IMG/VR virus record: IMGVR_UViG_3300046485_000051
Location: 1-64,000 of that record
DNA length: 64,000 nucleotides
Origin: a virus
Direction: 5' to 3' (one strand)
Shown in pieces: positions 15,949 to 39,755 of the stretch. Under the pieces are notes generated by a model. It ran no database searches. It was not told where the DNA came from and worked only from the letters and a program-made list of their open reading frames with translations. Every line of letters starts with the position of its first letter. Within the stretch, counting starts at the first letter, position 1. A program made the translations under genes and the position numbers.

Positions 15949-16668
15949 ATGATTGACCTAGTTTATGTGTTGGGTCCCGGAAGTTCCTGGGGCGACCGGG
16001 AACTTTTCTATTCGCTGCGTAGCGCCCAGGAGCACTTGCGGGGGATGGGGAAGGTTTTCATCGTCGGCACGGCCCCGAAGATTGCGCCGGACTTTGGCGT
16101 CGAGTGGACGCACGTTCCGGTGGAGGATAAGTCTTCCTGGCCGGCGTGCAACATTAACGCTTGCCTGCTGGCGGCCTGCCAGGTGCCGCAGCTATCTGAC
16201 ACTTTCCTGCGGGTGGATGACGACACATTTTTCCTGCGCGCGCAGGACGCCGATACTTTCCCGAATTACTACCGGGGGCTTCTTCCGGAGCACGTTCAGA
16301 TGCTTAGCGACCGCGCCGGCTCGCTCTACTACAAGTCTCTGTTGCGGACGGTTGCCTGGCTCAACGCGCGCCAGGTATCAAATCTTGACTTCGAGGTCCA
16401 CGGTCCGATGCGTTTCGAGAAGGCGAAACTCGGAGCGCTGCTGGCGAGGCTGAAGCCGGAGACCGGATTTCTGAGCCGCTCGCTCTACGGCAATCTTCAC
16501 AATCTTGCGGGCGAGCCAATGTCTGACTCGAAGATAGACCTCTCGCTCTCACCGGGCCAGATTGAGCGCCGGGTCAAGGACCGCCCGTTCTTCTCGGTGG
16601 GCGACCTGGGTTTGACTCACGCGATGCGAACTTTTCTGGGGCAGATATATCCGGGGAGGGTGCCTTGA
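15949..16668 (+). CDS. Stealth-family-like sugar-1-phosphate transferase (CR2-like region)
   Basis: DRELFYSLRSAQEHLRGMGKVFIVG and PQLSDTFLRVDDDTFFLRAQDADTF resemble my recollection of Stealth conserved region 2 (D.ELRYSLRS...IFIVT ... LSE.FIY.NDD.FF). Confidence 0.55.
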   Translation: MIDLVYVLGPGSSWGDRELFYSLRSAQEHLRGMGKVFIVGTAPKIAPDFGVEWTHVPVEDKSSWPACNINACLLAACQVPQLSDTFLRVDDDTFFLRAQDADTFPNYYRGLLPEHVQMLSDRAGSLYYKSLLRTVAWLNARQVSNLDFEVHGPMRFEKAKLGALLARLKPETGFLSRSLYGNLHNLAGEPMSDSKIDLSLSPGQIERRVKDRPFFSVGDLGLTHAMRTFLGQIYPGRVP

Positions 16669-19191: not shown

Positions 19192-19845
19192 ATGAGCCAA
19201 ACTTTTGCACAGTTCAAGGCACGCCTGGCGTCAGGCGTGCAGCGCAGCGATCTGGCTAGCAGCTACGGCCTGTTTATCAACGAGGCACTGCGGGAAATCC
19301 AGAATCGCCGCTCCTGGACGTGCATGAAGGTGGACGCGAGCGTCTCGATTGCGACCGGCACGGGCCGGGAGACGGCGGCGCTGCCAGCGGCCTTCAAGGA
19401 GTTTCAGAGGCGGACGGCGGTCGAGTATGTCGCGGATGACGGCGGCTTCGTCCCGGCCGATGTGGTGACGGAGGAGCAGCAGATTTACCGTATCTGGGCT
19501 TTCGGCGGCACGCCTATGTATACCTGGCCGCCGCGCGTGTTCTTTCTGCACCAGCCGGCGGCGACGTTAGGGGTCTTGGAGCCGCTTTCTCAGGCGCTCA
19601 ACTTCCGCGTGCGCTACTATGGCTATCTGCCCGATCTGTCGGCGGACGGTGACACGTCGCCGCTGATTAATGCTTACCCGCAGATGGTCCTAGCCAAGGC
19701 TAAGGCCATTGCGTTCACGGAAATTGTTGACCCGGTGGCGGCGCAGTTTGAGGAGCTTTTCGAGAAGAAACTGGCCGAGGCCGTAAGGCAAGACGCTTAC
19801 TCCGAAGTCTCGGGCCGGATTACCCGGCTGGGCCAGGGGGTCTAG
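19192..19845 (+). CDS. Virion protein, possible head-tail adaptor or tail tubular A-like
   Basis: 217 aa, first gene after the capsid block. Called by position only. Confidence 0.4.
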   Translation: MSQTFAQFKARLASGVQRSDLASSYGLFINEALREIQNRRSWTCMKVDASVSIATGTGRETAALPAAFKEFQRRTAVEYVADDGGFVPADVVTEEQQIYRIWAFGGTPMYTWPPRVFFLHQPAATLGVLEPLSQALNFRVRYYGYLPDLSADGDTSPLINAYPQMVLAKAKAIAFTEIVDPVAAQFEELFEKKLAEAVRQDAYSEVSGRITRLGQGV

Positions 19846-20908: not shown

Positions 20909-21294
20909 TGACTACTCCTAAAGAAGCTCAACCATTCCTTCCCCGCTGGCGGGCTGGGATAGGGCCACTCAGAGAAGAGGGCAGTGGTCTCTTGTCGGCG
21001 TGCTTGGTTCGCCAGAAGGACCTGCTCGACTATTTCGCCGCCCTAATGGGAAGTTTCACGCTGACAGTGAAGCCGCAAGCGGGGGAAATCTGGGCCGACA
21101 GCCTGCTGGTTCACAAAGGTGCTCCGGCAAAGCTTCTTTGGTTTCGCCGCATGGGCCAGGAGGTAGGCTCGCTCGATAGAAATTCTAGCGCTCCGCGTTG
21201 CTTGTTCTACGGGGTCGGGCTGGATGGCGCGGGAGGCCGGGTCGGCTACCGGATTGCGGAGGACGGGTCAGCGGAGTGGAGCACTGAGCTATGA
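20908..21294 (+). CDS. Hypothetical protein
   Basis: TAATG overlap with the upstream gene. ORF 20893..21294 trimmed to the ATG. Confidence 0.45.
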   Translation: MTTPKEAQPFLPRWRAGIGPLREEGSGLLSACLVRQKDLLDYFAALMGSFTLTVKPQAGEIWADSLLVHKGAPAKLLWFRRMGQEVGSLDRNSSAPRCLFYGVGLDGAGGRVGYRIAEDGSAEWSTEL

Positions 21295-24899: not shown

Positions 24900-24901
24900 G
24901 T

Positions 24902-26647
24902 ATGCCGACGCTTATCACGCTGCCGGCGTCACCCAAGCCCGCGCGGACGCTGGCTGAGCTTAGTCAGGCGATCACGGTCTGGACGCGCCAGGCGGAGCAG
25001 GCTATTCGTAAGGTCGCGTCGGTCGCTGATACCTCGCCCACCAGCCAGCTTGCCGGGCCGAGCCAGACGGGGCTGCTGTCGGCGTCGGATTGGCTGGTCT
25101 TCAACGCCAAGCAGGCGGCGGGGTCTTACCTGGTGGACGCTCCCAGCGACGGCGCAGTTTACGGGAGGCGGAATGGTGCTTGGTCGGCGGCGAGCGCGGG
25201 TGGCATAGCGGACGCGCCTAGTGACGGGACTTATTACAGCCGGAAGGATGCGGACTGGGCACATTTGCCGGCGGCGAGCGGGAGCACGGCGGGGCTGCTC
25301 TCGGCGGCGGATTGGAGCACCTTCACCGGGAAACAACCGGCGGGGTCCTACTTGACCGACGCGGCGAGCGATGGTAATAGCTACGCCCGGAAGAACGGGG
25401 CTTGGGCAGCGATCGGGACTGCGAGCGGCTCGGTAACCGGGCTGCTCTCTTCGTCCGACTGGACGACTTTCAACGGCAAGCAGGCCGCGCTGGTCGCAGC
25501 AGACTCGACGCATAACGGCTATCTAACCTCTGCTGATTGGGCCACGTTCAACAGTAAGCAGGCTGCCGGCAGCTACGTAACGGAGGCCGCTTCCGATGGC
25601 ACCTATTACACCCGGAAGGACGGGGTTTGGGCTCATCTGCCCAACGCGACAGGCTCGGTTATCGGTCTCTTATCCTCGACCGACTGGACGACGTTCAACA
25701 GCAAACAGGCGGCTTTGGTCCAGGCCGATGCAGCGCACGCCGGATACCTCTCTTCGACCGATTGGAGCACGTTTAATGGCAAGCAGGCTGCGCTGGTGGC
25801 GGCTGATGCGACGCACGCCGGTTACCTTACCTCGGCCGACTGGACGACTTTCAACAGCAAGCAGGCCGCCGGCAGTTATGTGACAGACGCCACCCACGAC
25901 GGGACCTATTACACGCTCAAGGATGGCGCGTGGGCTCACCTACCTTCTGCCTCAAGCTCGGTTACTGGTCTCTTGTCCTCGACGGACTGGGGCACCTTTA
26001 ACGGTAAGCAGGCGACGTTGGTAGCGGCCGACGCTACACACAGCGGCTATCTGACCTCTACGGACTGGGCAGCATTTAATGGGAAGCAGGCGACACTAGT
26101 AGCGGCAGATGCGACGTATAACGGTTACCTTACCTCTTCTGATTGGTCTACTTTTAACAACAAGCAGGCCACACTGGTCGTAGCCGACGCGACGCACAAC
26201 GGTTATCTGTCCTCGACCGATTGGTCTACCTTCTATAGCAAGCAGGCCGCCGGTTCCTATCTGACGGATGCCGCAGGGAGTATTAGCGCCGACAGTAAAT
26301 TTTACACCCGCAAGAACGGGGCTTGGTCCTCGCTACCTATTGCCGGAGCCTTCACTGCCGGGCTGCTCCAAGCCAGTGATTGGATAATTTTTAACGCTAA
26401 GACTGCCGCCAACCCAATTAATGGGGTTACCTATGTCCGCAAGGACGATGCCTGGATAGTCCCACCTACCGCGTCGGGCTCAGTTGCCGGGTTTCTCTCC
26501 GCCGCAGACTGGACGACGTTCAACAGCAAACAGGCCGCCGGCTCCTACCTCACAGACGCGGCGAGTGACGGGAAGACTTACGGCCGAAACAATGGCGCTT
26601 GGGCAGTGGTCGCTACTGATATTCTCAGTGTCCAGGTTTTCAGCTAA
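24902..26647 (+). CDS. Tail fibre built from two interleaved repeat motifs
   Basis: 13 copies of G[LY]L[ST]..DW.[TI]F[NTY].K[QT]-type motifs and 8 copies of DG..Y.RK.G.W. ATG follows 2 nt after the upstream stop. Confidence 0.7.
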   Translation: MPTLITLPASPKPARTLAELSQAITVWTRQAEQAIRKVASVADTSPTSQLAGPSQTGLLSASDWLVFNAKQAAGSYLVDAPSDGAVYGRRNGAWSAASAGGIADAPSDGTYYSRKDADWAHLPAASGSTAGLLSAADWSTFTGKQPAGSYLTDAASDGNSYARKNGAWAAIGTASGSVTGLLSSSDWTTFNGKQAALVAADSTHNGYLTSADWATFNSKQAAGSYVTEAASDGTYYTRKDGVWAHLPNATGSVIGLLSSTDWTTFNSKQAALVQADAAHAGYLSSTDWSTFNGKQAALVAADATHAGYLTSADWTTFNSKQAAGSYVTDATHDGTYYTLKDGAWAHLPSASSSVTGLLSSTDWGTFNGKQATLVAADATHSGYLTSTDWAAFNGKQATLVAADATYNGYLTSSDWSTFNNKQATLVVADATHNGYLSSTDWSTFYSKQAAGSYLTDAAGSISADSKFYTRKNGAWSSLPIAGAFTAGLLQASDWIIFNAKTAANPINGVTYVRKDDAWIVPPTASGSVAGFLSAADWTTFNSKQAAGSYLTDAASDGKTYGRNNGAWAVVATDILSVQVFS

Positions 26648-28575: not shown

Positions 28576-29292
28576 ATGGGATTCTGCGACAACAAACAAA
28601 GCGGGAACACGCAATACCAATACCAGGACCCCCTTGGCCCGACTTCTATTGGGCCGGGCGGGCATCCCGTGTATTCTGCGACTGGCGCGCCCCAGATGCG
28701 CAGCCAGGTATTCAACTACCTGAGCGGCGCAATGCCACAGATGGCGCAGGCCGGCCAGGATTACGCGGCGGCGTTGAAGGGCGCGGCCTCGAATGCCGGC
28801 TGGGGCCAGGAGGCCAAGCTCGCGCAGGACACGCTGGCGGGCAAGTATCTGAATGGGAGCCCGCAGCTTGACCGAGCCCTGGCGACTAACCGCGCGGCGG
28901 CCCAGGCAGACGCGGCCAACCAGACGGCGCGTATCCGGAGCGGCTACGGAAAGAACGGGATGGGCTTCTCGACGGCGAGCCAGCAGGCGGACCAGTCTAA
29001 TCGGGCTTCGGCAAACGCCCAGGCGAACCAGACCAACACCCAGGCGTATTTGCAGAACTACCTGGCGGAGCGGGGCAACCAGAACAACGCCGGCAGCATG
29101 CTCGCGCAGGCGGTCGGGACTCCGTTGAATTACATGGGCGGCGTTTCCGGCGCATACGCGAGCCCGCTGGGCCAAATCGGCAACATTCTGAGCGCTCTCA
29201 GCAGCGGCGGCCAGTCGATTGCGACCAACTCGCACGCGATTGACTCACCCTCGGCGGGGTCGAGCGTGCTGTCGGGGATTGGTTCGCTGTAA
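28576..29292 (+). CDS. Internal virion protein candidate (Gln/Asn/Ala-rich)
   Basis: Position after the tail genes and low-complexity Q/N/A composition typical of podoviral internal proteins. Confidence 0.5.
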   Translation: MGFCDNKQSGNTQYQYQDPLGPTSIGPGGHPVYSATGAPQMRSQVFNYLSGAMPQMAQAGQDYAAALKGAASNAGWGQEAKLAQDTLAGKYLNGSPQLDRALATNRAAAQADAANQTARIRSGYGKNGMGFSTASQQADQSNRASANAQANQTNTQAYLQNYLAERGNQNNAGSMLAQAVGTPLNYMGGVSGAYASPLGQIGNILSALSSGGQSIATNSHAIDSPSAGSSVLSGIGSL

Positions 29293-29305
29293 CCAGCTTT
29301 GACTT

Positions 29306-29626
29306 ATGGCACTGAACTATTTGGGGAACGACTACGGGGACGAGGCTGGCGGCGGGCAAGGATTTCCTGGCGGCGGGAATGACTATGGCGGCGAGCTTGC
29401 TGGGCCTGCGGGAGCGTCTCCTCTAGCTCAGCCTGGCTTCTTGGAGAATTTGAAGGGGGCGCTACTACGTGCTTCGGCGATGGGCGGCGGGGCGGCCGGT
29501 ATGGCCGCTGCTGTGAGCCCGGGCTTTTACAACGGGGTCTCGAAGACGAAGGGTGGCCAGAATGGCGGCAGCGGACTGTTGTCTAAGTTTGGCTCTTCTG
29601 CGGCTGGTGGGTCAGGCTCCTTCTAA
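29306..29626 (+). CDS. Gly-rich small virion protein candidate
   Basis: 106 aa with GGG runs. Confidence 0.5.
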   Translation: MALNYLGNDYGDEAGGGQGFPGGGNDYGGELAGPAGASPLAQPGFLENLKGALLRASAMGGGAAGMAAAVSPGFYNGVSKTKGGQNGGSGLLSKFGSSAAGGSGSF

Positions 29627-29635
29627 GGTTCTACT

Positions 29636-31108
29636 ATGAGTGCAGCAAGCGACAATGCTCTTTCGGCCAGTCAAGCCCGCCAGGGGCTCCTGGGTCTCGG
29701 CGGCTTTATTCAAGGTCTGCGCGAGTGGCAGGTCCAGAAGCCTTTGCTCCAAGCACAGGCGGCGCAGATGAGCGCGCAGCCGGGCCTGGTGCAGGCGCAG
29801 ACGGATGTAGCCAAAGCGAACGCCGCCGCGTTGAAGCAGCAGACCGATCAGCAGAAGCAACTTTTTGAAGCGTGGGGCCTGAAGGCCGCACAGGCGCGCG
29901 CTAACGCTCTCAGTGGCCTTGGCTTTGGTTCTGGCGATGGGAGCGGGCCGTCGCTCTTTACCCCCGGGGACAAGAGCGTCAGTCCTTTTGGGCCACCGGT
30001 CACGGAGCCAGGCGCGCCTTCCGCCGGCTTCGGGGGTGCTCCTAATTTCCTGGACGTTTCTCGCGGGCTGCCGCCGACTATCTCGGCCCCAGGCTCGACG
30101 AAGCCTTTCCAGTTGGCGGGCCGGTCGGGAATCGCCACCACCCTAAACCCGGCTGGCGAAATCGAATTTGGACCCGGCTCTCTCAGTCCCGAGTTGAAGT
30201 CTCAGATTGACAACGACCCGGCGACAACCTGGTCGCAGGCGGACCCGATGACGCGCAAGGCAATCGAAGGTTATCTGAAGTCCAACGCCGCAGCGCTCGG
30301 TAACCGTGAGTCAGCGGCGAAGCTGGTGGACGCAAAGCGCAGCGCCTCCTACGGCAACACTACGGAGCAGAAGGAGCATCGAGACTTTGCTCTCAATGCG
30401 TCGCTGCTGTCGCACCGGCTCAACCAATATGACGACGTAGTCGCGAAGCACGGCAACTGGAACAACACACTCGGCACGCGCGACCCGGAGGCGACGGCGA
30501 AGTTGTCTTCGCTGCCGATGGATATTTCGGAGAACTGGAATAAGGTGTCCAACCCGGGCGCGACGCTCCGCGAGGGCCTTGTCCACCTGGGCAAGGAGAA
30601 TCAAATACCCGCTGGTTTCTGGACGCTAAGCAACACGACCCGCGCGGGAATCAAGCAGACCAAGTCAGTCCTGGCCGAGTATGTCCGGGCCTACGAGAAC
30701 CTGGCAGCCACACGGGCACCGATTGAAGGGCTCTCGGCAGACGTGCGTAAGGCTGTCGGGCCGACAGAAGCGTCCAAGCGGTTTGAACAGCAGTTTGGCG
30801 TTCCCGTCCCGACGGACGAGGGGGCCTATCAGCCTGAGCCGGCGGCCGCTAAGCCGGCACCGAAGGGCGCGGGGGACAGCACACAGCCCGGGACTTCCGG
30901 CACCGCTGGCCCCGAGGCTGCGGTCGAGGTCAAGACTCAGCAACAATATGAAAGCCTGGCCCCGGGCACCTGGTATAAAGACAGCACTGGCGCGGTAAAG
31001 CAGAAGTCCGGGGCTCGCCCGACCGTGAACACAGGAAGCACAGCCGGCGCTCCTAAAGGGCCGTCTTTGCCGGCCTTGACGCTCAGCCCAGTATTGAAGC
31101 CTCGCTAG
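29636..31108 (+). CDS. Internal virion protein candidate
   Basis: 490 aa with a coiled-coil Q/A-rich N-terminus, directly ahead of the giant ORF. Confidence 0.55.
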   Translation: MSAASDNALSASQARQGLLGLGGFIQGLREWQVQKPLLQAQAAQMSAQPGLVQAQTDVAKANAAALKQQTDQQKQLFEAWGLKAAQARANALSGLGFGSGDGSGPSLFTPGDKSVSPFGPPVTEPGAPSAGFGGAPNFLDVSRGLPPTISAPGSTKPFQLAGRSGIATTLNPAGEIEFGPGSLSPELKSQIDNDPATTWSQADPMTRKAIEGYLKSNAAALGNRESAAKLVDAKRSASYGNTTEQKEHRDFALNASLLSHRLNQYDDVVAKHGNWNNTLGTRDPEATAKLSSLPMDISENWNKVSNPGATLREGLVHLGKENQIPAGFWTLSNTTRAGIKQTKSVLAEYVRAYENLAATRAPIEGLSADVRKAVGPTEASKRFEQQFGVPVPTDEGAYQPEPAAAKPAPKGAGDSTQPGTSGTAGPEAAVEVKTQQQYESLAPGTWYKDSTGAVKQKSGARPTVNTGSTAGAPKGPSLPALTLSPVLKPR

Positions 31109-31374
31109 TTGCGGGGCTTGAAGGTTGCGTAGAGCACGAAGGCCAGCAGGCCGACGTAAAAGGCAACGCGCCAGTAGGCTACCACCAGGTATGCTACAAC
31201 GGCGAGGGCGACGAGAATGCCGGCCCATTTGAGCTTCGGGTAGGCATATTCTTTAGCACCACCCACCAGGGCGGCAAAGATGACCGGCCAGGGCTCCCGC
31301 GTTCGCGGCGGACAGACCCATAGTTCGGGATGTTCCCGGCGGGACTTCTCGGCAGCTTCAGCAGATAGACTCAT
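31105..31374 (-). CDS. Two-TM membrane protein on the opposite strand (moron-like)
   Basis: PVIFAALVGGA and GILVALAVVAYLVVAYWRVAFYVGLLAFVLYA. It is the only minus-strand gene inside the late block. Start taken at ATG 31374. Confidence 0.5.
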   Translation of the reverse strand: MSLSAEAAEKSRREHPELWVCPPRTREPWPVIFAALVGGAKEYAYPKLKWAGILVALAVVAYLVVAYWRVAFYVGLLAFVLYATFKPRN

Positions 31375-31456
31375 ACGGGGCAAGCCTTTCAGAAGATTGC
31401 TCGCCTGTCAACTGAAAAGGGCGGCCCTGGGTTTAACAACGTCAGCGAATTTGATG

Positions 31457-31485
31457 TTGAAAAGCTGGCTGGATTCGGGTAGTCT
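31457..31485 (+). promoter_or_regulatory. Promoter-like TTGAAA-N17-TAGTCT (GGGTAGTCTGG box)
   Basis: -10 at 31480-31485. ATG of the giant ORF at 31494 is 8 nt later. Confidence 0.4.
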
Positions 31486-31493
31486 GGTCCGAT

Positions 31494-34400
31494 ATGGCTG
31501 CTGATTTCATTGGCCCCGACACCGACCTCGCCGCCCCTCAGACTCCGGGGAAACCCGAAGGCTTCGTAGGGCCTGACTCCGACACTACCGCCTCTTTTGT
31601 GGGGCCGAAGTCTGATGCGGCTCAGCCCGAGGATATTCGTGGGCGGATGCAGGACCCAAAGTTCTGGCCGTCGAATGACCAGTGGCGCGCGCTTTACGAG
31701 AGCGAGAAGAACAAGCCTTCCGACCGCCTGGGCGCGGTAGCGCGGGGCTTGAAGGGCATCGCGGCATTGCCCGGCCAGGCGTGGGACGAAGCTTCGGCCG
31801 AGGCCGCTCAGGGCAAGCCAGGGCACTTTCTGCAACGCGAGGCGGCGGTCGTTCCTGAAGCACTGGGCCAACTTGCGCGGATGGTTATAGACCCGGTCGC
31901 GGATTTCGTGCTGGCCCCTCCTCACTCCACGAACGAAGAGCAGGCTTTTCAGAACTGGAAAGAGGAACAGGGCAACAAGCTGGCTCGGTCTCGGATGCCG
32001 GCCTCGGCTCCGTGGACGCGGACCTGGCGGGAACCGGTCGAGGGTGAGGACCCCGAACAGGCCGCCGTGCAGCCGTTCCAAGCGGCCTCGACTATCGCCA
32101 GCCTTGGTGTGCCTATCGGGGCGGCTACCGGGCCGGCGCTGAAGTATCTGGGCGCGGCGGGGCCGGCGGCTACTGCCGGCAAGACTCTCGTGCAGTCCGC
32201 TATTGAGGGCGCGGCGGGGCCGGCGACTAAGGCGTTGGGCGAGCGGGCTGCCGGCGCTGTCGGCGCTGCGGTCGAGAACACGGGCAAGCTGGCTAAGGTC
32301 GTAGGCGGGGCTCCGCGCAAACTAATCAACAAGGCCGCCGAGGCTATCACCGGCCCGGAAATGGCAAAGCCGCTGGCTGGCGGTATCGCGGGCGCACTGC
32401 TGCACAATCCTGTTGCCCAGGGCTTGGCAACTGCCGAAGGTGTTGGCACAGGCGTCGCGAAGGCCGGCGAGCTTATCCAGAAGGTGGCGGGAGCCTCTGC
32501 GGCTGGGCCTGGCCGCTTTGCTAACCTCCTCAAGAACCCGGCGACTCCTACCTGGATACGCGGGACAATCGGCTCATTGACAGCCGGCGCTGCGGGCATA
32601 GTCGTGCCTGCCGCCAAGTCGATAGTGAAAGGTGCAGTCGGTGGTGCTGCTGTCGGTGCCGGACTGAACGCTGCGAACGGTGAAGACCCCTGGGAAGGCG
32701 CGGGCGCGGGCCTGGCCTTGGGCGGAGGTTTCGGATTGGCCGGTGCCGGCGAGGTCAGGAAGGGCGACGTATTCAAGAACCGCGTCGCCGGGCTCACCGA
32801 GCTTATGCGGTCCAACCTGGACGCAGGTGTCACTCCTGAGACTCTGGCGAAGGTGCCGGATGCGGCGGCGCTGGCGGCGTCAGACCTGCCCTATCTGGGA
32901 ATCAAGGATGCGCAAGGGCGAGACCTCAAGGTCCGTTTCGCCGACGAAAAGACAGACACGTCTCTGGCCGGCCAGGATGGCTACTACGACCGGGGCCAGC
33001 ATACCATTGTGATGAACGCCGACGCGCTCCAGCGCAGCCCGGCGGCCTGGGGCTCGCTGTTCCACGAGGTTCTTCATCCGTTGATGGAGAGCGAGGTTGC
33101 CAACCGTCCCGAGTTAAAGGGCCAAGTGGACGCGGCGCTGGCGAAGAACGGCCAGACGCTCGACGAGGCGAAGCGCGCCTACGCTTCTGCGCACTTGGCG
33201 GAGCAACTTAAAGGCAGCACGCCCGAGGCGGCCAAGGCTACGATAGACCAATGGGTCACGGCGCAGGACCAAGCTTCCGCCGTGAACAACAAGGGCGATG
33301 CAAACCATTGGGTTTACTCTGAACTGTTGGCCGAGGCTGGCCGCTGTGCGCTGGGTGGTCTCGGCGACATAGTCAGGCCCGAGGGCGCAATCAATAGGGC
33401 GCTGGCCCCGTCGGTGAGCAAGATTCTTGGGAACGTCTTAGAGCGCATGGGCATAGGCTCCCGGCCGGGGCCGAAGCCCGGCACAGTCATTCCTGGATTT
33501 CAGAACGTGGCGGAGGACCCGTCGCTTCGCAAGGCCGTCTATAGCCTTCTGAGGAATCAACGGGATTTTGCGCCGGGTATCTCGAAGGGGGCTCCGCAGG
33601 AAGTCCGGCTCACGCCGCAGGACGTGGGTGGGGCGAAGCTTCCAGTCAGCGGCCAGACGGCGCAGGACTATCTGCGCGAGACTAGGCCCGGCTCGGGCCG
33701 GTATGAAGTGCGCCCGAAGGCCGAGCAACGAAAGGCCGAGCGAGACCGGAAGGCGGTCATGGAGCGCATATTTCCGACGACGGGCACGGCGCTGCCGGCG
33801 AACGATGCCAGCGACGCGATGGCGCTGCGCACGCGCGCAGACGGCTCCGCAGAGCGGCGCGGCAGGGTGCTGGGCGATGCTTTCTATCAGGACCCGAACG
33901 TCAGCGACTCGATGAAGCAGACGGCGGCAATCTTTGAGGCGATGATTAACAAGGGTGGGGCCTTCGAGGGCTGGTATAACAAAACCCACAAGAACGGCAT
34001 CGCCAGCCTGAAGGACCTCGTCTCTGAGTATAAGCGCGGCGTCCGGCCTTACGAGTTTTTCATGGACAAGCACGGGCACCTTCTGGTGCGCAGCTTCGAC
34101 ATGGGTCACGCGGAGGACGTGAAGCTCGGCGAGTGGGCACAACGCACTGGGCCGGTGAGCCTGGAGCTTTGGGGCAACGACCCGGCAGCGGCGAAGGTTG
34201 ACCTGGTGACTTACACCGACAACCTGGCGTCCGGCCGGCCGGGTGCCGATAGCATCGGCGAGAAGAAACGCGACGTATTGAACGCGCTGGTCTTCGGCGA
34301 CAACGCCGCGAACCGAGACGCCAACCCACTGCGGAAGAACCTCAAGAGCGCGAAGGCCAGGGAAGGTTTGGTCCGGTCTTACCGGATTGACCGGGTCGAG

Positions 34401-37400
34401 ACGGCGAAGCCGAGCCCGAGTGACTTGCACACTCCGGACTATCGCCGGGGCGTCTTCAATTTCTCCCCATCAGCCGACCCGCGCGCTGTCAAGCTGGCTG
34501 CCGTCATGGACGAATCGACGGGCAAGATTTATGAAGGCCCGTATCATGCTGCCGCTGCCGAAAAGTATTGGGAGACGAAGTTTCCCGGTGACGAGACCAA
34601 CGCTCTGCGGGCCTGGAATAGCGTGCCCGAGTTGAAAGAGGGCTTCATCACTAACAGCGGCGAGTTTCTGGACCGCGACCAGGCATTTCAGCGAGCCACG
34701 GAGCTAAATCAGTATAAGCCGACGGCGCGCGACGACGGACAGCTTGAGTCCACCCGGTTCAATCACCAGCGGGAACTACAGGCCGCCGGCTTCGCGCCAG
34801 ACGTGAGATATTCCCCGGCAGCGGAGGATAAGGTTGCCCAGGTCGGCCAGAACATTGTAGACCAGGCCGGCGAAGAGCGGCGCTTCTCTCCGGCCACGAA
34901 GTTTGTTGACAACCAGCCGTCTGATGTTAATAATCGCGGCGTGAAGAAATTGCCGCACGCCGTCGGGGAAGGCTCCGTCCGAGTTATCCACCTGAGCAGC
35001 CGGGGAGACCTGAAGACCGTCAATCCCCGTTACTTCGGCAAAGGGGCGGCCAACACGACCGACCTACGGGGCGGCAACAAATCCTTTTTCTTCGTCGAGG
35101 GCTCGCCCCTGGGCGCGGATGCCAACATCTTCAGCCAGGGCGGCTACAACGCCTTCACGGCGGAGCTAGACGGCTCGAAGCTTTACGACTTGCGCGCCGG
35201 CAAGCCGGACCCGCTGGGCTACTATAGCGGGGTAAACCGGGAGAAGGCCGACGACCTGGTCCGCCGGAAAGGCTACCACGGCATTCTGGTCGAGACCGGC
35301 AAGGGTGACGGGCGCAACGTCGTCCTGATGTATCGCGCGGTCCCGGTCAAGCCGGCGGGCAACTTCTATGGCGACGTTGCCCGGCCGCTGGCGACCCAAG
35401 CGAAGTCTGGGCTGACGTTCAAGGACTTCTTCTCGCAGGCAACGAAGGGCGCGGTCGGCAAATCTACGGTGCCCTGGGAGCCGATAATGGACCTGGGCGG
35501 AGACAAGGCATTCCGCGCCGAGCAGGCCAAGCACACCGGCAACTTCGACGAGCATATTGCGAAGTCCATCCCGGGCTTCCGCGAGACCCAGGTCCGCACG
35601 GGCTCCGCGATTGTCAAGACGTTTGGCAAGGGCGCGGACATGCTCGACATTGCCGCCAGCGAGGGCAGTTACGCGAAGACGATTTCTGCACGCTCGAACG
35701 GCAGTATCAAGACAGTGTCGCTCGACCCAAATCCGGACATGGCGCAATTCTTTGCCAAGCAGAGCAAGGTCCCCGGAGCGAACTACGACACGTCCGCCTT
35801 CTTGCAGGGCTTCGAGGACAACGGCAAAGTCGTGCCGGCCTATAACCCGACGAAGCGGTTCGACGTGGTTCACGAGTCGATGGGCTTCCAGTTTATCAGC
35901 CCCGACCGAGAGCCTCAGTTTGCTGAGGCCAAGCGGTTGATGAAGCCGGACGGCGTGTTCCTGACCGAGGAGAAGGTCCGTAATGGTGCCTGGGCGGCGA
36001 ATGAGGCTAAGAAGGATGCCGGCTACAAGGCCAAATTTTTTACGGGCGAGGAGCTTGCGAAAAAGAATGAGGTCGTCGGCTTCCAGCAGTCTGAGCAGGA
36101 GACCCAGAAGGTCGGGATGCTCGACAACATGGTTACCGACGTAGACCTCGAAGCCGCCCTGGCTAAGAACTTCAAGCACGTTGTTCAATATTGGGACTCG
36201 GGGAATTTCAGGGGCTACGCGGCGAGCGACAACCCGGCGGTCCTGGCGAAGCTTGTAAAAAACATGGGCGACCTGCGGACTGACTATAGCACGGTCGAGA
36301 CTCCGCGCACGGTCGGCGAAAAGCCCGAAGGAAAGCAGTTCTCCCCAGCGCACGCAGACTACAAGGGCGAGGGCGAAGGCGAAGCCGCGCGGCCCGAGCA
36401 GTTCCACGCGGTCGGCTCGTTCGACAAGCTGGGCAAACTGACGGCGGCGCTTAACCCTTCGGGCGGCTACGCCAGCGAGAACGAGAACGCTGGAGGCCGC
36501 GCTCCCTGGCGCTATGACGCCGGCACCAAAGCGGTCTCCTGGCCGAGCGGATTGCCTGCGACCTCGAAGCGCAACGCTGTGGCTGCCTGGTTGAAGGAAC
36601 GCGGCTACCCGGTCGAGACCCATACCAGGGCTGCGACTGATTTTGCCTACAGCCCGAGCGCTGCGGCCGGAAAGTTCCAGGATGCTATCGGCTCCATCGC
36701 GGAAGACGGCGAGGTCAAGGGCGTCACCAACTCAGGCGGCGATTTCTTGAGCCACGCCGCTAACGCAGTCACGGGGGACAACTCCTGGCGCTACGACGCG
36801 GCCAGCAAGACTGTGGGCTGGTGGGCCGGCCTGCCCAACGCTAAGACTCAGGACATAGTCAAGGCATGGCTGGAAAAGAAGGGTTTCGCGGTGGAGCACC
36901 AGAAGGCGGTCGGCTACAACGCCGGCTCCCATTTTGCTTTCAGCCCGGCGGCTCCGGTCTTCTATTCGCAACTCGAAAAGACGGTCGATGCGAAGTTCTC
37001 CGGCAAGGAAATGCCGGCGGCGCAACTGGCGGCGCTCCTGCGCAATCCGCAGAACGGCGTCAAGGCCGAGGAGTTGAAATGGTCCGGGCTGGACGACTAT
37101 TTGAAGTCCAAAGGCCGTGTGACGAAGGCAGAGGTCCAGGAGTTTCTGAAGGCCAACGCCGTGCAGGTCAAGGAAGTGCAGAAGGGCACTAACCCCGAGC
37201 ATGAAGCGGCCGAGAAGGCTGCGGAAGACATTCGCGTCGAAATGGACCGCAAGTATGGTCCTAACTGGTATTATGACGACCGGTTCATCAACAGCCCCGA
37301 CCGCGCGCGGTTGCGCGAGGCTGACGAGCGCTTGCACGACGCCCAAACGATGGGCAAGACTGACACCAAGTTCGAGAACTACCAACTCCCCGGCGGCGAG

Positions 37401-39731
37401 AACTACCGGGAGCTTCTGTTTACGCTGCCAGAACAGGGAAAGTTGGTTTACACTAAGGAGAATGTCATCCCGGAAGAAGGACCGGAAACTAATAGCCGGT
37501 ATAATCATCTGTTTTGGTTTTTCCGCACGCCGGACAACGTGCTGCAAATCTCAAAGTCAAAGCACCCAAGCCAGGAAGCCGCGCTTGATTATATCCTGCG
37601 CGAGAAGCAGCCGGCGACGCGCTACGAGCACAATTTCAAGTCCCCGCACTGGGACGAGCCGAACGTCCTGGCGCACACGCGCCTGAATGACCGGACGGAC
37701 AGCGCTGGCAAGCCCGGCCTCTTCTGTGAGGAAATTCAGAGCGACTGGCACCAGAAGGGGCGGAAGGAAGGATACCGTGTTAATCTGACTCCGGAGCAGC
37801 AGGAGCTAGATGCACTAGTCAAACGGATTAGCTTAAACGGGTGGGAGAGTTTGACCCGCGAAGAACGGGCAAGAAAACACGAGCTTGTGAGGAGCGGGGT
37901 AGGCGAGTCTTTGATGGGGAAGAGCGGCAACGAAGGCGTCCCGGATGCTCCTTTCAAAGGCACCTGGCAGGAGCTTGTCTTCCGCAGGCTCGTTCGCATG
38001 GCCGCCGAGCAGGGCAAGGACTGGCTGGGCTGGACGACCGGCGACCAGCAGGCCGAGCGCTATGACTTGAGCAAGCAGGTTGACGCTGTGGACGTTCACT
38101 TGATGCCCAATGATGACAACCGGGGCAAGTATCTGGTGGAAGCCATACAGGGTCGCAACGCTGTTGTCAGCGAGCGCTGCGAAGACCTTGCTGCTGTCGA
38201 GCGGCTCATCGGCAAGGACCTCGCCAAGCAAGTCGCCGAGCAGAAAGAGCCCTTCCATAAATACACCGGGACCGACCTCAAGGTCGGCGGCGAGGGCATG
38301 AAAGGCTTCTACGACAAGATGCTCGTGGACTACGCCAACAAGTTCGGCAAGAAGTTCGGGGCCAAGGTTGAGGACCGCAACATTCCTTCAACCTCGCACG
38401 GCCAGAGTTACTACGCCGAGCAAAACCCCGAGGGGAATTGGACCGTTTACGAGAACACATCTAGCGGACCAGCCGCCTACGATGACGCACCCACTAAGCA
38501 AGCTGCGGACAGGATTTTGAAGAAACTCCTCGGAACGCAGACCATAATTCACTCTCTGCCCATCACGCCGGAAATGAAGGCCAGCGTTGTCGGCCAGGGC
38601 GTGCAGATGTTCTCCCCTGCTGCCGAGAAGGCTCCTGAACAGGGCCGGCTGGACCTGGGCCTCCCCTCGTTTTCAAACGTGGGCGGTATGACGAAGGCCC
38701 AGATAGTCGAGCGCTTCCCCGAAGCCGTGAAGGCCGGCGCGCGAGACGAAAAGCACGATTACAACATCGTCGGCGCTCCGCTGGTGAAAGGGCTCCCTCA
38801 CGACCAGGCCGTCAAGACCTACGCGGATAAGCTCGAAGGCGAAGCCAAGAAGTGGCTGGACCATCCGGCCTTCCAGTCGGGGCTCCGCTGGTATTCCGAA
38901 TTTACGCCGCTGCTCAAGAAGCACTTCGGCAAGGACGCGAACCTCATGGCCGAGCTTCTGGCGGCGACCAGCAAGCGGACCAATCCGGCGGTAAACTTTG
39001 GTTTCGCTCAGGACGCGCTGGAGCTTAACCGGCGCGGGCACTACAAGAAGCTCGTGGCGAAGTTCGAGCAGGGGGTGAAGATGGCTGAGAACGGGACGCT
39101 GGAGCGGTGGTATAAAACCCGGCTCACAAAGGGCCTGGTTGACAACCCGCCGAAGGTAGCCGGCCCGGGCACCTGGCTGGGCCACTGGGTTAAGGCCCAT
39201 GACCTCTTTCCTCGCCAGAGCAACGGGAAGCTCTTCGGCATGTCGTCGGGGGCGGTGTTGCAAGTGCTGGCCCGCCGCTGGCTGGAGTTGAACAAGGGGC
39301 CGAAGGTGGCGAACTTCGTCAAGAACCTGCTGGGCACAGGCCACGAGGCGACCGTTGACGTGTGGTCGGCGCGCGACCTGCGCCGGCTGGGCTACGAGGG
39401 TCAGCCCGGGCATGAGAAGTGGCGCATTCTGCCGATGAATGAGACTGGTGTCAGTGACGCGGATTTTACCTTCTCGCAGAAGGTATTCCGCCAGGCCGCA
39501 ACTCAGATGGGTTTGAAGCCGGACGCTCTCCAGGGTGGTATGTGGTTCGCGGAGAAGTCGCGCTGGGAGGATAACGGCTGGGCTCCGCTGGACCTGGGCG
39601 ACTACCGCAAGGAAATCAAGAAGACCGGGCTGCTGCGCGCCGGAGTCGGCCAGCGGCTCGCGACTCACGCTCAGGAAGTGAAATCCAACCGGGCCGCGCA
39701 CCCCGAGCAAGCTTTGTTATTTAACCGTTGA
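31494..39731 (+). CDS. 2745-aa polyvalent internal-virion/ejection protein (zincin HExxH, class I SAM methyltransferase and unassigned modules)
   Basis: Uninterrupted 8238-nt ORF. HEVLH at 33063-33077. MTase motifs FDEHIAKSIPGF, DMLDIAASEGSY, RFDVVHESMGFQFI and LMKPDGVFL at about 35520-36010. Ala/Gly-rich N-terminal third. Confidence 0.85.
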   Translation: MAADFIGPDTDLAAPQTPGKPEGFVGPDSDTTASFVGPKSDAAQPEDIRGRMQDPKFWPSNDQWRALYESEKNKPSDRLGAVARGLKGIAALPGQAWDEASAEAAQGKPGHFLQREAAVVPEALGQLARMVIDPVADFVLAPPHSTNEEQAFQNWKEEQGNKLARSRMPASAPWTRTWREPVEGEDPEQAAVQPFQAASTIASLGVPIGAATGPALKYLGAAGPAATAGKTLVQSAIEGAAGPATKALGERAAGAVGAAVENTGKLAKVVGGAPRKLINKAAEAITGPEMAKPLAGGIAGALLHNPVAQGLATAEGVGTGVAKAGELIQKVAGASAAGPGRFANLLKNPATPTWIRGTIGSLTAGAAGIVVPAAKSIVKGAVGGAAVGAGLNAANGEDPWEGAGAGLALGGGFGLAGAGEVRKGDVFKNRVAGLTELMRSNLDAGVTPETLAKVPDAAALAASDLPYLGIKDAQGRDLKVRFADEKTDTSLAGQDGYYDRGQHTIVMNADALQRSPAAWGSLFHEVLHPLMESEVANRPELKGQVDAALAKNGQTLDEAKRAYASAHLAEQLKGSTPEAAKATIDQWVTAQDQASAVNNKGDANHWVYSELLAEAGRCALGGLGDIVRPEGAINRALAPSVSKILGNVLERMGIGSRPGPKPGTVIPGFQNVAEDPSLRKAVYSLLRNQRDFAPGISKGAPQEVRLTPQDVGGAKLPVSGQTAQDYLRETRPGSGRYEVRPKAEQRKAERDRKAVMERIFPTTGTALPANDASDAMALRTRADGSAERRGRVLGDAFYQDPNVSDSMKQTAAIFEAMINKGGAFEGWYNKTHKNGIASLKDLVSEYKRGVRPYEFFMDKHGHLLVRSFDMGHAEDVKLGEWAQRTGPVSLELWGNDPAAAKVDLVTYTDNLASGRPGADSIGEKKRDVLNALVFGDNAANRDANPLRKNLKSAKAREGLVRSYRIDRVETAKPSPSDLHTPDYRRGVFNFSPSADPRAVKLAAVMDESTGKIYEGPYHAAAAEKYWETKFPGDETNALRAWNSVPELKEGFITNSGEFLDRDQAFQRATELNQYKPTARDDGQLESTRFNHQRELQAAGFAPDVRYSPAAEDKVAQVGQNIVDQAGEERRFSPATKFVDNQPSDVNNRGVKKLPHAVGEGSVRVIHLSSRGDLKTVNPRYFGKGAANTTDLRGGNKSFFFVEGSPLGADANIFSQGGYNAFTAELDGSKLYDLRAGKPDPLGYYSGVNREKADDLVRRKGYHGILVETGKGDGRNVVLMYRAVPVKPAGNFYGDVARPLATQAKSGLTFKDFFSQATKGAVGKSTVPWEPIMDLGGDKAFRAEQAKHTGNFDEHIAKSIPGFRETQVRTGSAIVKTFGKGADMLDIAASEGSYAKTISARSNGSIKTVSLDPNPDMAQFFAKQSKVPGANYDTSAFLQGFEDNGKVVPAYNPTKRFDVVHESMGFQFISPDREPQFAEAKRLMKPDGVFLTEEKVRNGAWAANEAKKDAGYKAKFFTGEELAKKNEVVGFQQSEQETQKVGMLDNMVTDVDLEAALAKNFKHVVQYWDSGNFRGYAASDNPAVLAKLVKNMGDLRTDYSTVETPRTVGEKPEGKQFSPAHADYKGEGEGEAARPEQFHAVGSFDKLGKLTAALNPSGGYASENENAGGRAPWRYDAGTKAVSWPSGLPATSKRNAVAAWLKERGYPVETHTRAATDFAYSPSAAAGKFQDAIGSIAEDGEVKGVTNSGGDFLSHAANAVTGDNSWRYDAASKTVGWWAGLPNAKTQDIVKAWLEKKGFAVEHQKAVGYNAGSHFAFSPAAPVFYSQLEKTVDAKFSGKEMPAAQLAALLRNPQNGVKAEELKWSGLDDYLKSKGRVTKAEVQEFLKANAVQVKEVQKGTNPEHEAAEKAAEDIRVEMDRKYGPNWYYDDRFINSPDRARLREADERLHDAQTMGKTDTKFENYQLPGGENYRELLFTLPEQGKLVYTKENVIPEEGPETNSRYNHLFWFFRTPDNVLQISKSKHPSQEAALDYILREKQPATRYEHNFKSPHWDEPNVLAHTRLNDRTDSAGKPGLFCEEIQSDWHQKGRKEGYRVNLTPEQQELDALVKRISLNGWESLTREERARKHELVRSGVGESLMGKSGNEGVPDAPFKGTWQELVFRRLVRMAAEQGKDWLGWTTGDQQAERYDLSKQVDAVDVHLMPNDDNRGKYLVEAIQGRNAVVSERCEDLAAVERLIGKDLAKQVAEQKEPFHKYTGTDLKVGGEGMKGFYDKMLVDYANKFGKKFGAKVEDRNIPSTSHGQSYYAEQNPEGNWTVYENTSSGPAAYDDAPTKQAADRILKKLLGTQTIIHSLPITPEMKASVVGQGVQMFSPAAEKAPEQGRLDLGLPSFSNVGGMTKAQIVERFPEAVKAGARDEKHDYNIVGAPLVKGLPHDQAVKTYADKLEGEAKKWLDHPAFQSGLRWYSEFTPLLKKHFGKDANLMAELLAATSKRTNPAVNFGFAQDALELNRRGHYKKLVAKFEQGVKMAENGTLERWYKTRLTKGLVDNPPKVAGPGTWLGHWVKAHDLFPRQSNGKLFGMSSGAVLQVLARRWLELNKGPKVANFVKNLLGTGHEATVDVWSARDLRRLGYEGQPGHEKWRILPMNETGVSDADFTFSQKVFRQAATQMGLKPDALQGGMWFAEKSRWEDNGWAPLDLGDYRKEIKKTGLLRAGVGQRLATHAQEVKSNRAAHPEQALLFNR

Positions 39732-39755
39732 CAGCAACCGGAAAAAGCTTAAAGT
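39728..39755 (+). promoter_or_regulatory. Promoter-like TTGACA-N16-TAAAGT overlapping the giant ORF stop
   Basis: -35 at 39728-39733 and -10 at 39750-39755. Confidence 0.3.

Follow-up and report, generated by a model that had tools for sequence, protein, structure and literature searches.

A giant phage polyvalent protein with a conserved N-terminal module bearing a putative zincin and a recurrent peptide mark at its module borders

The analyzed window, the 64,000 nucleotides of DNA at positions 1 to 64,000 of the IMG/VR virus record IMGVR_UViG_3300046485_000051, contains an 8.2-kb open reading frame whose product, judged from its sequence, is a phage-type polyvalent protein in which a specific peptide mark, [FY]-S-P, sets the modules apart; this mark was overlooked in an earlier sequence-only reading of the same DNA. 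The protein is organized as a constant N-terminal module (module A), a shuffled middle cassette, and a DUF7178-containing module that comes last. The middle cassette comprises module B, an ART-PolyVal-like module (C), a CmoA-like S-adenosylmethionine (SAM) methyltransferase (D), two WRYDA repeats (E1 and E2), and a 560-aa module (F). It is very probable that the protein is packaged and ejected, with module A as a constant head and the modules behind it as shuffled cargo. We lean modestly toward the full sequence of events in which the packaged and ejected polyprotein is also cut by its own zincin at the FSP marks.

Reading frame, locus, and protein class

The reading frame runs without an internal stop codon, as had been read from the sequence, over 31494..39731 (+); it begins at the first in-frame start codon and encodes 2,745 aa plus a stop. 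The identical 2,745-aa protein is recorded on a 65,420-bp JGI contig, and two independent assemblies (L001 and L002) carry orthologous giants of 2,277 and 2,984 aa at the same position, so an assembly artifact is unlikely. A nucleotide search of GenBank phages with this DNA returned no match, tblastn returned three partial matches only, and a profile search of the contigs of reference bacterial genomes found no relative of module A.

The giant gene is the last gene of the structural/virion operon, a position conserved in the query phage, L001, and L002. The gene order is that of phage SU10, with terminase, portal, capsid, and tail genes followed by genes for small proteins, the gene for the largest protein, and then convergent replication genes. 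An SU10-type adaptor gene at 19192..19845 (+) (PF24175, 60.5 bits, E=4e-16) provides the reference point for comparison with the virion module of kuraviruses, this adaptor family being common to the query phage and SU10, a Kuravirus. In SU10, the products of the operon's last five genes (gp20 to gp24) are present in virions and are gone from genome-released particles (PMC9509320). Like the query, SU10 gp24 (1,473 aa) is the product of the largest gene in its virion operon, which follows several smaller genes, closes the operon, and directly precedes convergent replication genes; it differs in being about half the size of the query, and comparison of the query or module A with gp24 revealed no similarity (hhalign probability of 0.1%, BLASTP E of 0.36 or worse). 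Since module A has no similarity to SU10 gp24, an ejection role rests on position. The polyvalent protein gp47 of phi24B (2,811 aa) has been detected in virions by mass spectrometry, and we infer packaging and ejection of the query by analogy with SU10 gp20 to gp24 and phi24B gp47.

Three genes upstream at 28576..31108 (+), encoding 238, 106, and 490 aa, are by their position candidates for co-ejected proteins. In two related phages, a trio of similar size is found at the corresponding position, with 54 to 56% identity between the 238-aa protein and its counterparts in these phages, and the first two proteins of the trio (238 and 106 aa) are rich in G/A/Q/N. A small minus-strand open reading frame at 31105..31383 (-) lies between these genes and the giant gene, and because it interrupts the operon upstream, the giant gene may be transcribed separately. 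The giant gene had been credited with its own promoter-like site, which was not recovered: a sigma-70 scan gave no site between 31108 and 31494, and visual inspection yielded nothing better than a weak match, TTGAAA-17-TAGTCT, whose end is 7 nt upstream of the giant gene's ATG. The break in the operon would also suit an unpackaged, cytoplasmic multi-enzyme protein that is made during infection and adjoins the virion genes by chance. This explanation is improbable in view of the conservation of the locus in three phages, its correspondence to the block of ejection proteins in SU10, the placement of module A and tandem repeats at the N-terminal end, and the precedent set by the virion detection of phi24B gp47.

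The assignment to the polyvalent class, proposed previously, is supported by giant homologs, by the unrelated activities joined in the query, and by the virion-operon position. Each of the 28 homologs recovered with the full-length query is itself a giant, 1,900 to 4,600 aa in length, and their precomputed Pfam domains include ART-PolyVal (PF18760), LPD1, LPD5, LPD38, the ParB-like PF18763, RadC, GGDEF, and PF13871/PF13872. Such domains are polyvalent hallmarks according to Iyer et al. 2017 (PMC5512222), the hallmark entries found in the homologs being PF18760, PF18796, PF18799, PF18857, PF18763, and PF04002. The query itself has no LPD or ART-PolyVal match in Pfam; it joins a putative zincin, a SAM methyltransferase, and an ART-like domain to four further unrelated modules. 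Polyvalent proteins such as phi24B gp47 and PTXU04 gp25 (2,198 aa), the latter required for infection, are likewise giants joining unrelated enzymatic domains, and polyvalent proteins described by Iyer et al. also carry a zincin and are encoded beside late virion genes (PMC5512222). Comparison of relatives, which had been suggested as a check on module swapping, revealed 35 different module orders among 97 proteins, with modules shuffled independently and the order in the query unique. The placement of module A first and DUF7178 last is a feature of the query family that is not mentioned in the accessible text of Iyer et al. 2017 (PMC5512222).

The size of the protein and its Ala/Gly-rich stretch could also be those of a giant with a single function, for instance a tape-measure protein or a virion RNA polymerase of the N4 type, and a match of all segments to one known single-function protein, with the N4-type polymerase as the example, had been named as a result that would overturn the polyvalent assignment. 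No RNA polymerase or tape-measure match was found in Pfam, PHROGs, NCBIfam, or PDB, and a PDB sequence search with the whole protein returned nothing usable. Because neither an RNA polymerase nor another single-function match was found, that refutation fails. The independent shuffling of modules among relatives and the SU10-type adaptor (SU10 is a short-tailed phage) also argue against a single-function giant, for which we see hardly any room; the module analysis refutes both the tape measure and the virion RNA polymerase as explanations, and they were rejected.

The N-terminal module and the cargo modules

The protein begins with three short repeats of F[IV]GP[DK][ST]D (aa 5 to 41; 31506..31616, +), which read, as had been noted, FIGPDTD, FVGPDSD, and FVGPKSD at aa 5, 24, and 35. 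The N termini of relatives carry 2 to 4 tandem short repeats with other sequences (FDPxxAGA, GLFDDLI, and DPWE). The first ~1,000 aa form a single conserved N-terminal module, which refines the earlier picture of loose effectors. Module A, at residues ~210 to 995, is common to about 97 protein clusters, and query residues 110 to 1309 are matched by 378 clusters. The module lies at the N-terminal end, at approximately residues 200 to 1100, in most of the 150 matches listed, a few of which are fragments, and it was not found in Pfam, PHROGs, or PDB.

The earlier description of an Ala/Gly-rich, glycine-zipper-like stretch (aa ~195 to 430; 32076..32783, +) holds for the composition, with an A+G content of 41 to 45% over aa ~200 to 400 and 32% over aa 401 to 500. 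The likeness to a glycine zipper is one of composition only, as only one window of 19 aa has a Kyte-Doolittle score above 1.4. Residues P352, W354, G384, G388, G404, and G410 of this part are conserved in relatives, and it may possibly contact a membrane or channel.

The putative zincin core (aa 432 to 625; 32787..33368, +) consists of three strands, an HExxH helix, and a helix bearing E610 and E614. The HEVLH motif that had been recognized earlier occupies aa 524 to 528 (33063..33077, +) and is identified by motif and conservation: HExxH is present in 96 of 96 relatives, with H524 and H528 retained in 96/96 and E525 in 95/96, and the downstream glutamates E610 and E614 are conserved in 97% and 82% of module A relatives. 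An HExxH motif together with a downstream Glu on a second helix, with helices predicted at these places, is the gluzincin-type arrangement. An AF2 model of the core (pLDDT of 81.9) places three strands before the HExxH helix, followed by the Glu-bearing helix. The module A profile has a weak match to IrrE (3dte) over about 36 residues of the strand-plus-HExxH region (E=0.016). As in module A, the ImmA/IrrE (M78) zincins have a strand ending in N that is followed by the HExxH helix; in contrast, the candidate third ligand of module A lies about 82 residues downstream, and Foldseek did not return IrrE. A Foldseek search of PDB with the core model gave nothing significant (best E=1.3), with M1 aminopeptidases at a probability of 0.15 or less. 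Because Foldseek gave no significant PDB match, the zincin assignment rests on motif conservation, predicted topology, and the weak match to IrrE. The most conserved subdomain of module A (aa 780 to 989; 33831..34460, +) contains the conserved residues W893, D903, Y907, N910, K925, N930, N944-P-L-R947, R964, D966, R967, and N989, and neither this subdomain nor the module A profile had a PDB match beyond IrrE.

Behind module A, module B (aa 993 to 1105; 34470..34808, +) is a mobile domain of ~110 aa with the motifs AAVxD..GxIYxGxxH and GFxTxxGxFLxRxEA, and its profile matched only designed repeat proteins in PDB. Module C (aa 1145 to 1305; 34926..35408, +) is tentatively assigned as a divergent ART-PolyVal-like domain from its sequence profile. 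Residues H1166, Y1231, and D1232 are invariant and Y1261 is near-invariant; alignment of the module C profile to the ART-PolyVal alignment with hhalign gave 95.9% and E=5.8e-9, with only the last 44 columns aligning confidently, and short relatives bearing module C have weak Pfam matches to ART-PolyVal. ART-PolyVal has its catalytic His, Tyr, and Asp in strands 1, 2, and 5; its GYDG reads GYHG in the query, so that the Asp is a His, at a position that is not conserved across module C, and the module C profile found nothing usable in PDB.

Module D (aa 1306 to 1615; 35409..36338, +) is predicted to have a class I SAM-dependent methyltransferase fold of the CmoA/YecO type. The earlier recognition of a SAM methyltransferase is confirmed by scores above the Pfam gathering thresholds for Methyltransf_11 (28.7 versus 21.2 bits), Methyltransf_25 (28.2 versus 27 bits), and Ubie_methyltran (22.7 versus 20.1 bits). 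Module D has in common with CmoA/YecO (carboxy-SAM synthase) the N-terminal FDEHIAKSIPGF motif and differs in an additional conserved C-terminal extension of ~100 aa. Profile scores were weak against YecO (1im8; E=0.0056 over 167 positions) and E. coli CmoA (E=0.19), the NCBIfam CmoA model had no match in the query, and PHROG 4752, which the query matches, is labeled "tRNA methyltransferase." Module D was also compared with the DNA N6-adenine methylase that is paired with an SNF2 helicase in polyvalent proteins, and this identity was ruled out: there is no helicase domain and no NPPY-type motif, (D/N)PP(Y/F) being the motif of DNA N6-adenine methylases, and the nearest relatives are CmoA-like.

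The two WRYDA modules described before are present, with the motif at aa 1672 in E1 (aa 1619 to 1718; 36348..36647, +) and at aa 1765 in E2 (aa 1722 to 1815; 36657..36938, +); the repeats are 39% identical (E=2e-16). Module F (aa 1819 to 2372; 36948..38609, +) is a module of ~560 aa that is common in polyvalent proteins and was found in 57 of the 177 proteins collected. It contains the previously reported EEIQSDWHQKGRKEGY, at aa 2079 to 2094, and the motifs HWDEPNxLAH...EEIQSDWHQxGR, RYDLSKQ, and GGEGMKGFYD. A structural model of module F matched 27 giant phage proteins in BFVD, some of them named as ART-PolyVal-like or LPD-containing. Foldseek of this model against PDB gave no match below E=0.1; the top matches, all GNAT acetyltransferases, were nonsignificant (probability of 0.47 or less) and are a hint only of a GNAT-like fold, and the module F profile found nothing usable among PDB sequences. 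The roughly 370-aa C-terminal module seen earlier is present at aa 2373 to 2745, within which the DUF7178-containing cap, module G, occupies aa 2376 to 2745 (38619..39728, +). DUF7178 is the last mapped module wherever it is present and has many invariant polar residues; the module G profile found nothing usable in PDB.

A peptide mark at module borders

The motif [FY]-S-P occurs in seven copies in the query, each at a module border defined by homology, and the stricter pattern [FYWM]SP[AST] selects the same seven sites versus 0.15 expected. The first mark, FSP at aa 990 to 992 (34461..34469, +), is preceded by N989 and closes module A. It is followed by YSP at aa 1106 to 1108 (34809..34817, +), FSP at aa 1131 to 1133 (34884..34892, +), FSP at aa 1616 to 1618 (36339..36347, +), YSP at aa 1719 to 1721 (36648..36656, +), FSP at aa 1816 to 1818 (36939..36947, +), and FSP at aa 2373 to 2375 (38610..38618, +). 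No FSP lies between module C and module D, where there is only the FKDFFS with which module D begins. At the end of module A, N989 is conserved in 100% and P992 in 98% of 97 to 99 relatives. The marks fall where pLDDT is below 50, at the ends of both structural models, where low values are expected anyway.

The mark is tied to module A. Proteins bearing module A contain 222 copies of FSP versus 23.1 expected (9.6-fold), at 1.98 per 1,000 aa downstream of module A versus 0.24 inside it, whereas polyvalent proteins that have module F and lack module A contain 6 versus 6.6 expected (0.9-fold). FSP density is 7.4-fold higher outside module cores, and stand-alone copies of module C are missing the mark. 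The codons differ between FSP copies, so selection acts on the peptide, and a DNA-level repeat was rejected as the source of the marks. FSP as a part of domain folds was also rejected, since nonhomologous modules share it and stand-alone module C is without it.

Cleavage at the marks, if it occurs, need not be the work of the protein's own zincin. In many phages, internal proteins are matured by a prohead protease, T4 gp21 and phiKZ gp175 being examples, and FSP could be cut by a head-maturation protease of this kind or by a host enzyme. A scan of the structural genes detected no protease family, the other proteins of this phage are not enriched in [FY]SP (3 versus 3.8 expected), and FSP co-occurs with the module A zincin, all of which makes cutting by another protease a poor prospect.

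Possible delivery and self-processing

In the mechanism that we propose, the giant protein, of 298 kDa when intact, would be a late product that enters the head along with the other proteins encoded at the end of the operon and leaves through the tail when the phage infects a cell. Module A would be the constant part, supplying packaging or ejection competence together with the protease. The lineage-specific cargo behind it would consist of module B, the ART-like domain fused to the CmoA-like SAM enzyme, the two WRYDA modules, module F, and the DUF7178 cap, each cargo unit bounded by [FY]-S-P. The zincin would cleave the marks either inside the capsid or once the protein has been delivered; if all of them were cut, the result would be about seven products of ~105, 13, 53, 11, 10, 63, and 42 kDa, and the freed products may act on host targets. 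That the zincin itself cuts at FSP is plausible, at somewhat less than even chances. More tentatively still, the protein may represent a family of phage "polyproteins," ejected proteins of ~300 kDa in which the protein's own zincin recognizes [NQ]-F-S-P between interchangeable effector cassettes.

Injection of polyvalent proteins, followed by autoprocessing through their zincins, was predicted by Iyer et al. 2017 (PMC5512222). The accessible text of that paper names no cleavage signal for zincin processing of injected polyvalent proteins, and the FSP mark is apparently not described in it, as the word "linker" is absent and "cleavage site" appears only in a reference title (PMC5512222). Among the proteins that it covers, DdrB and DarB of phage P1 are head-packaged anti-restriction proteins, and DdrB, which contains a zincin, undergoes proteolytic processing (PMC5512222); in contrast to the query, they have other domains and no reported repeated cut-site motif, and P1 is contractile-tailed. 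According to the same paper, zincin-bearing proteins can also travel uncut, as do N4 virion RNA polymerase, ArdC, and TraC1 (PMC5512222), and the uncut transfer of the first two counts against self-cleavage of the query.

The query could accordingly be ejected in one piece, with FSP serving as a hinge or threading signal, for example for unfolding and refolding in the tail, and with the zincin acting on a host target such as a repressor or defense protein, as for IrrE and ImmA, or on the cell wall. IrrE, the best sequence match of the zincin among solved structures, is a site-specific protease of a regulator, and a cell-wall role has been suggested by the phi24B authors for the phi24B metallopeptidase. 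In addition, proteins made solely of module A still end in N-x-S-P, so the motif at the first mark may belong to module A and not be a cut site. However, a generic hinge would not require an invariant tripeptide, or one whose occurrence follows that of a single protease family, as is the case for FSP, and, to our knowledge, peptidoglycan is not usually cleaved by HExxH zincins. Delivery of an uncut protein is unlikely on balance, although it deserves more weight than cutting by another protease.

MARTX toxins and viral polyproteins provide a likeness to the proposed self-cutting protein: in these systems, the delivered polypeptide's own protease cuts short recurring linker motifs and frees several effectors. 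The likeness is in working only, as their proteases are unrelated cysteine or serine enzymes, delivery takes other routes, and there is no homology. If cutting by the zincin at FSP is correct, the query would be a phage equivalent of MARTX toxins and of the polyproteins of RNA viruses, delivering seven or more separate enzymes from one gene. Recombination could then exchange its cassettes with no need for packaging or release signals to evolve anew, and cassettes B, WRYDA, F, and DUF7178 would represent previously unknown effector families.

A mark found at the borders of modules, in association with one zincin family and not elsewhere, makes the 2017 processing prediction directly testable, and the combination of a fixed head with variable cargo suggests a natural scaffold for protein delivery into bacteria. 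The units defined by FSP could be assembled into a catalog of candidate counter-defense effectors. FSP also offers a ruler, read from the primary structure, for dividing giants into domains, including stretches without a known family; it lies within a few residues of modules in P0002, P0030, P0031, P0033, P0037, and P0038.

Genomic setting of the giant gene

The open reading frame (ORF) at 31494..39731 (+) is unbroken, starts at the first start codon past the preceding stop, and encodes a protein of 2745 aa. By analogy with studied phages, this is quite probably a packaged and ejected polyvalent protein whose head stays constant while its cargo is shuffled. An identical copy is recorded on a 65,420-bp JGI contig, where it is annotated merely as a "SAM-dependent methyltransferase," and orthologous giants of 2277 and 2984 aa occupy the same slot in two independent assemblies (L001 and L002, respectively). 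The motifs quoted in the sequence-only reading are all present where it placed them: three F[IV]GP[DK][ST]D repeats (aa 5, 24, and 35), an Ala+Gly-rich stretch (41-45% over aa ~200-400 and 32% over aa 401-500), HEVLH (aa 524-528; nt 33063-33077), a pair of WRYDA repeats (sharing 39% identity; E=2e-16), EEIQSDWHQKGRKEGY (aa 2079-2094), and a C-terminal module some 370 aa long. Its methyltransferase assignment held, with Pfam gathering scores exceeded for Methyltransf_11, Methyltransf_25, and Ubie_methyltran. The gene's own promoter, which it had also proposed, was not reproduced, as a sigma-70 scan was empty from 31108 to 31494.

Between the upstream gene at 29636-31108 and the giant ORF is a small minus-strand ORF (31105..31383) whose product is hydrophobic in its C-terminal half; at the counterpart position L001 has a 59-aa minus-strand gene without sequence similarity to it. 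Within the giant ORF, past the third junction mark and before module C, is a strong sigma-70-like site (34906-34934, +; TTGACA-17-AATAAT, 11/12) that, if real, could drive separate expression of the C-terminal cargo; three such sites were found in this region against 1.7 expected, so that chance is possible. Another (39728-39755, +; TTGACA-16-TAAAGT, 10/12) overlaps the giant ORF's stop codon, upstream of a 65-aa ORF and RuvC.

The window holds most of one phage genome. The plus strand encodes the terminase (9292), portal (11577-13712), major capsid protein (17365), a 1202-aa Ig/lectin-rich structural protein (21291-24899), a 639-aa fibre-like protein (24728-26647), and, after the giant gene, RuvC (40005), and the replication block (DNA polymerase A, helicase, and exonucleases) is on the minus strand. 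As listed, the structural and fibre-like ORFs overlap by 172 nt (24728-24899), and the real start of the latter is probably further downstream. A 239-aa ORF in the head-gene block (15949-16668, +) has a sub-threshold Pfam match (27.1 bits versus 39.4) to Stealth_CR2, a region conserved in Stealth proteins. The terminase and capsid protein are at most 27% identical to those of cultured phages (tblastn), and no nucleotide match for the giant gene was found among GenBank phages; by these comparisons all cultured phages are distant from this one.

The ORF at 19192-19845 (+) encodes an SU10-type adaptor (PF24175; 60.5 bits versus a threshold of 27), and the portal matches SU10_portal weakly, just under the Pfam threshold. 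The window presents an uncultured phage of 60% GC with a kuravirus-like virion module and the overall genome plan of Escherichia coli phage SU10, a short-tailed kuravirus. Past the tail genes, SU10 encodes gp20-24 (260, 350, 322, 551, and 1473 aa), which are ejection proteins because they are in virions but missing, by proteomics, from genome-released particles (PMC9509320). SU10 gp24 is the last plus-strand gene ahead of the convergent replication genes, and the giant gene fills a like slot. Module A, the N-terminal head of the giant protein, has no detectable similarity to gp24, so assignment of the giant gene to an ejection locus is an argument from position and a shared adaptor family, not from homology. 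In the window, the slot is filled by four genes (152, 238, 106, and 490 aa) and then the giant one, and L001 and L002 show the same layout. Identity to the counterparts at those two loci is 47-56% for the 152-aa and 238-aa proteins (54-56% for the latter); the 490-aa protein matches weakly and only in L002, and for the 106-aa protein neither locus gives a match. The 238-aa and 106-aa proteins (28576-29292 and 29306-29626, +) are low-complexity sequences rich in Gly, Ala, Gln, and Asn for which no family match was found, and are candidate small ejection proteins.

Head, cargo, and cap modules

A search with the full-length query found 28 homologues, every one a giant of 1900-4600 aa, and their precomputed Pfam annotations include ART-PolyVal, LPD1, LPD5, LPD38, PF18763 (ParB-like), RadC, GGDEF, PF13871/PF13872, and 2',5' RNA ligase. 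Most of these domain types are covered by the 2017 survey that described polyvalent proteins (PMC5512222). A Pfam scan of the query itself found none of the homologues' domains; its modules are common to proteins that do carry polyvalent Pfam domains. Experimental precedents for polyvalent giants in short-tailed phages are phi24B gp47 (2811 aa; LPD1/5/38 plus a metallopeptidase), which mass spectrometry shows to be abundant in virions and for which an ejection role has been proposed (bioRxiv 10.64898/2026.04.10.717836), and PTXU04 gp25 (2198 aa), which is needed for infection (PMC11879866). With the class recognised since 2017, the bare finding is another member of it; what is new, as judged from sequence, is the module A family, the architecture of head, cargo, and cap, and a tripeptide mark, FSP, that tracks the zincin.

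Modules were mapped by BLAST and HMMER comparison of the query with 176 relatives. Module A (aa 1 to ~990) belongs to a large and, by the searches run, purely metagenomic family that was absent from Pfam, PHROGs, PDB, GenBank phages, and GTDB reference genomes. When 1.84 billion cluster representatives were scanned by HMMER using aa 110-1309, 378 clusters matched; in most of the 150 matches listed the part corresponding to aa ~210-995 is N-terminal (residues ~200-1100), a few being fragments, and the module A proteins among them span 1000-3300 aa, some consisting of module A only. Across 96 relatives (27-47% identity), H524 and H528 are 100%, E525 99%, and E610 97% conserved. Modelled with AlphaFold from a 17-sequence alignment, aa 432-996 (pLDDT 81.9, pTM 0.66) show three strands before the HExxH helix and, further on, a helix bearing E610 and E614, which is the zincin arrangement given by the 2017 survey (PMC5512222). 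The module A profile matches IrrE over the strand-plus-HExxH region (E=0.016), and Foldseek found no significant neighbour of the core model in PDB. The C-terminal third (aa 780-989), for which no relative of known kind was found, is the best-conserved part, and at the end of the module stands N-[LFYM]-[ST]-P, whose Asn is 100% and Pro 98% conserved. Only 4 of 95 relatives have the exact F[IV]GP repeat; many of the N-termini inspected carry two to four tandem short repeats of other sequence, which suggests a possible conserved role in multivalent docking.

Module B (aa 993-1105) is a mobile domain of ~110 aa with no function assigned. Module C (aa 1145-1305) is also mobile and stands alone as proteins of 138-178 aa. 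Its profile aligns to ART-PolyVal with 95.9% probability (E=5.8e-9), confidently over the last 44 columns only, and weak Pfam ART-PolyVal matches come from two short relatives that contain module C (143 and 289 aa). His1166 and Tyr1231-Asp1232 are invariant, and the Asp of the ART-PolyVal GYDG motif is His in the query; module C is tentatively called ART-PolyVal-like, as a candidate member of that family. Module D (aa 1306-1615) has a class I SAM-dependent fold whose closest solved relatives are YecO (E=0.0056) and CmoA (E=0.19); it is distinct from the DNA adenine methylase usual in polyvalent proteins. Modules E1 and E2 (aa 1619-1815) are WRYDA domains found elsewhere among the relatives only in P0038 and P0120. 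Module F (aa 1819-2372) accounts for most of the homologues found with the full-length query (23 of 28), more than any other module. Its model (pLDDT 73) has 27 significant BFVD matches, all to giant proteins of uncultured phages, and none in PDB; the weak top matches in both databases are GNAT acetyltransferases, so that a GNAT-like fold is a lead only. Module G (aa 2376-2745), which includes DUF7178, comes last among the mapped modules of every architecture having it. The 97 module A proteins show 35 different module orders, A-B-C-D-E-F-G being seen once; the family thus keeps its head, and often its tail, constant and exchanges what lies between.

The FSP junction mark and possible processing

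[FY]-S-P occurs seven times in the query (aa 990, 1106, 1131, 1616, 1719, 1816, and 2373), always at borders set independently by homology; the stricter [FYWM]SP[AST] finds the same sites, against 0.15 expected from shuffles. The seven copies differ in their codons, so the selection is on the peptide, and the mark's context favours [QN] at -1 and A/E/D at +3. Proteins with the module A zincin contain 222 FSP versus 23.1 expected, at densities of 0.24 per 1000 aa within A and 1.98 downstream of it, whereas the 23 polyvalent proteins with module F but without module A contain 6 versus 6.6 expected. In an unbiased tripeptide count FSP was the most enriched high-count tripeptide of the module A set, and nothing comparable emerged from the module F set lacking A. 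FSP is 7.4-fold denser outside module cores and lies within 60 residues upstream of 71 of 156 module starts. Six relatives (P0002, P0030, P0031, P0033, P0037, and P0038) have modules bracketed to within a few residues, as in P0031: FSP1272, C[1277-1433], FSP1433; FSP2077, F[2084-2798], FSP2799; FSP2941, G[2941-3309]. The mark is absent from stand-alone copies of module C and is not enriched in the phage's other proteins ([FY]SP, 3 versus 3.8 expected).

In the simplest account, the protein's own zincin would recognise the mark, and the giant would therefore be a polyprotein. Many zincins prefer a bulky hydrophobic residue just past the cut, and this account fits that preference. It also agrees with a general prediction of the 2017 survey (PMC5512222). 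Against it, proteins that are module A only retain the terminal N-x-S-P, the C|D border is the sole module border in the query without FSP, and other delivered bearers of zincins, N4 virion RNA polymerase and ArdC, go uncut according to the same survey (PMC5512222). The main rival is that the protein stays uncut, with FSP as a hinge and the zincin attacking host proteins; we consider cutting at FSP by the protein's own zincin plausible but somewhat short of an even chance. Together, the mark and zincin give experimenters a concrete and cheap way into the autoprocessing proposed for polyvalent proteins, and FSP would supply a sequence rule for splitting them into candidate effectors.

At the start of module D (35409-35435, +; aa 1306-1314), G..F..FFS is invariant in 5 of 5 homologues (FKDFFS in the query) and may represent a degenerate form of the mark at this C|D border. 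Five relatives without module A (P0012, P0015, P0016, P0017, and P0020) have a recurring D-L-F-G between recognisable regions, which might be a junction or docking motif of a different lineage.
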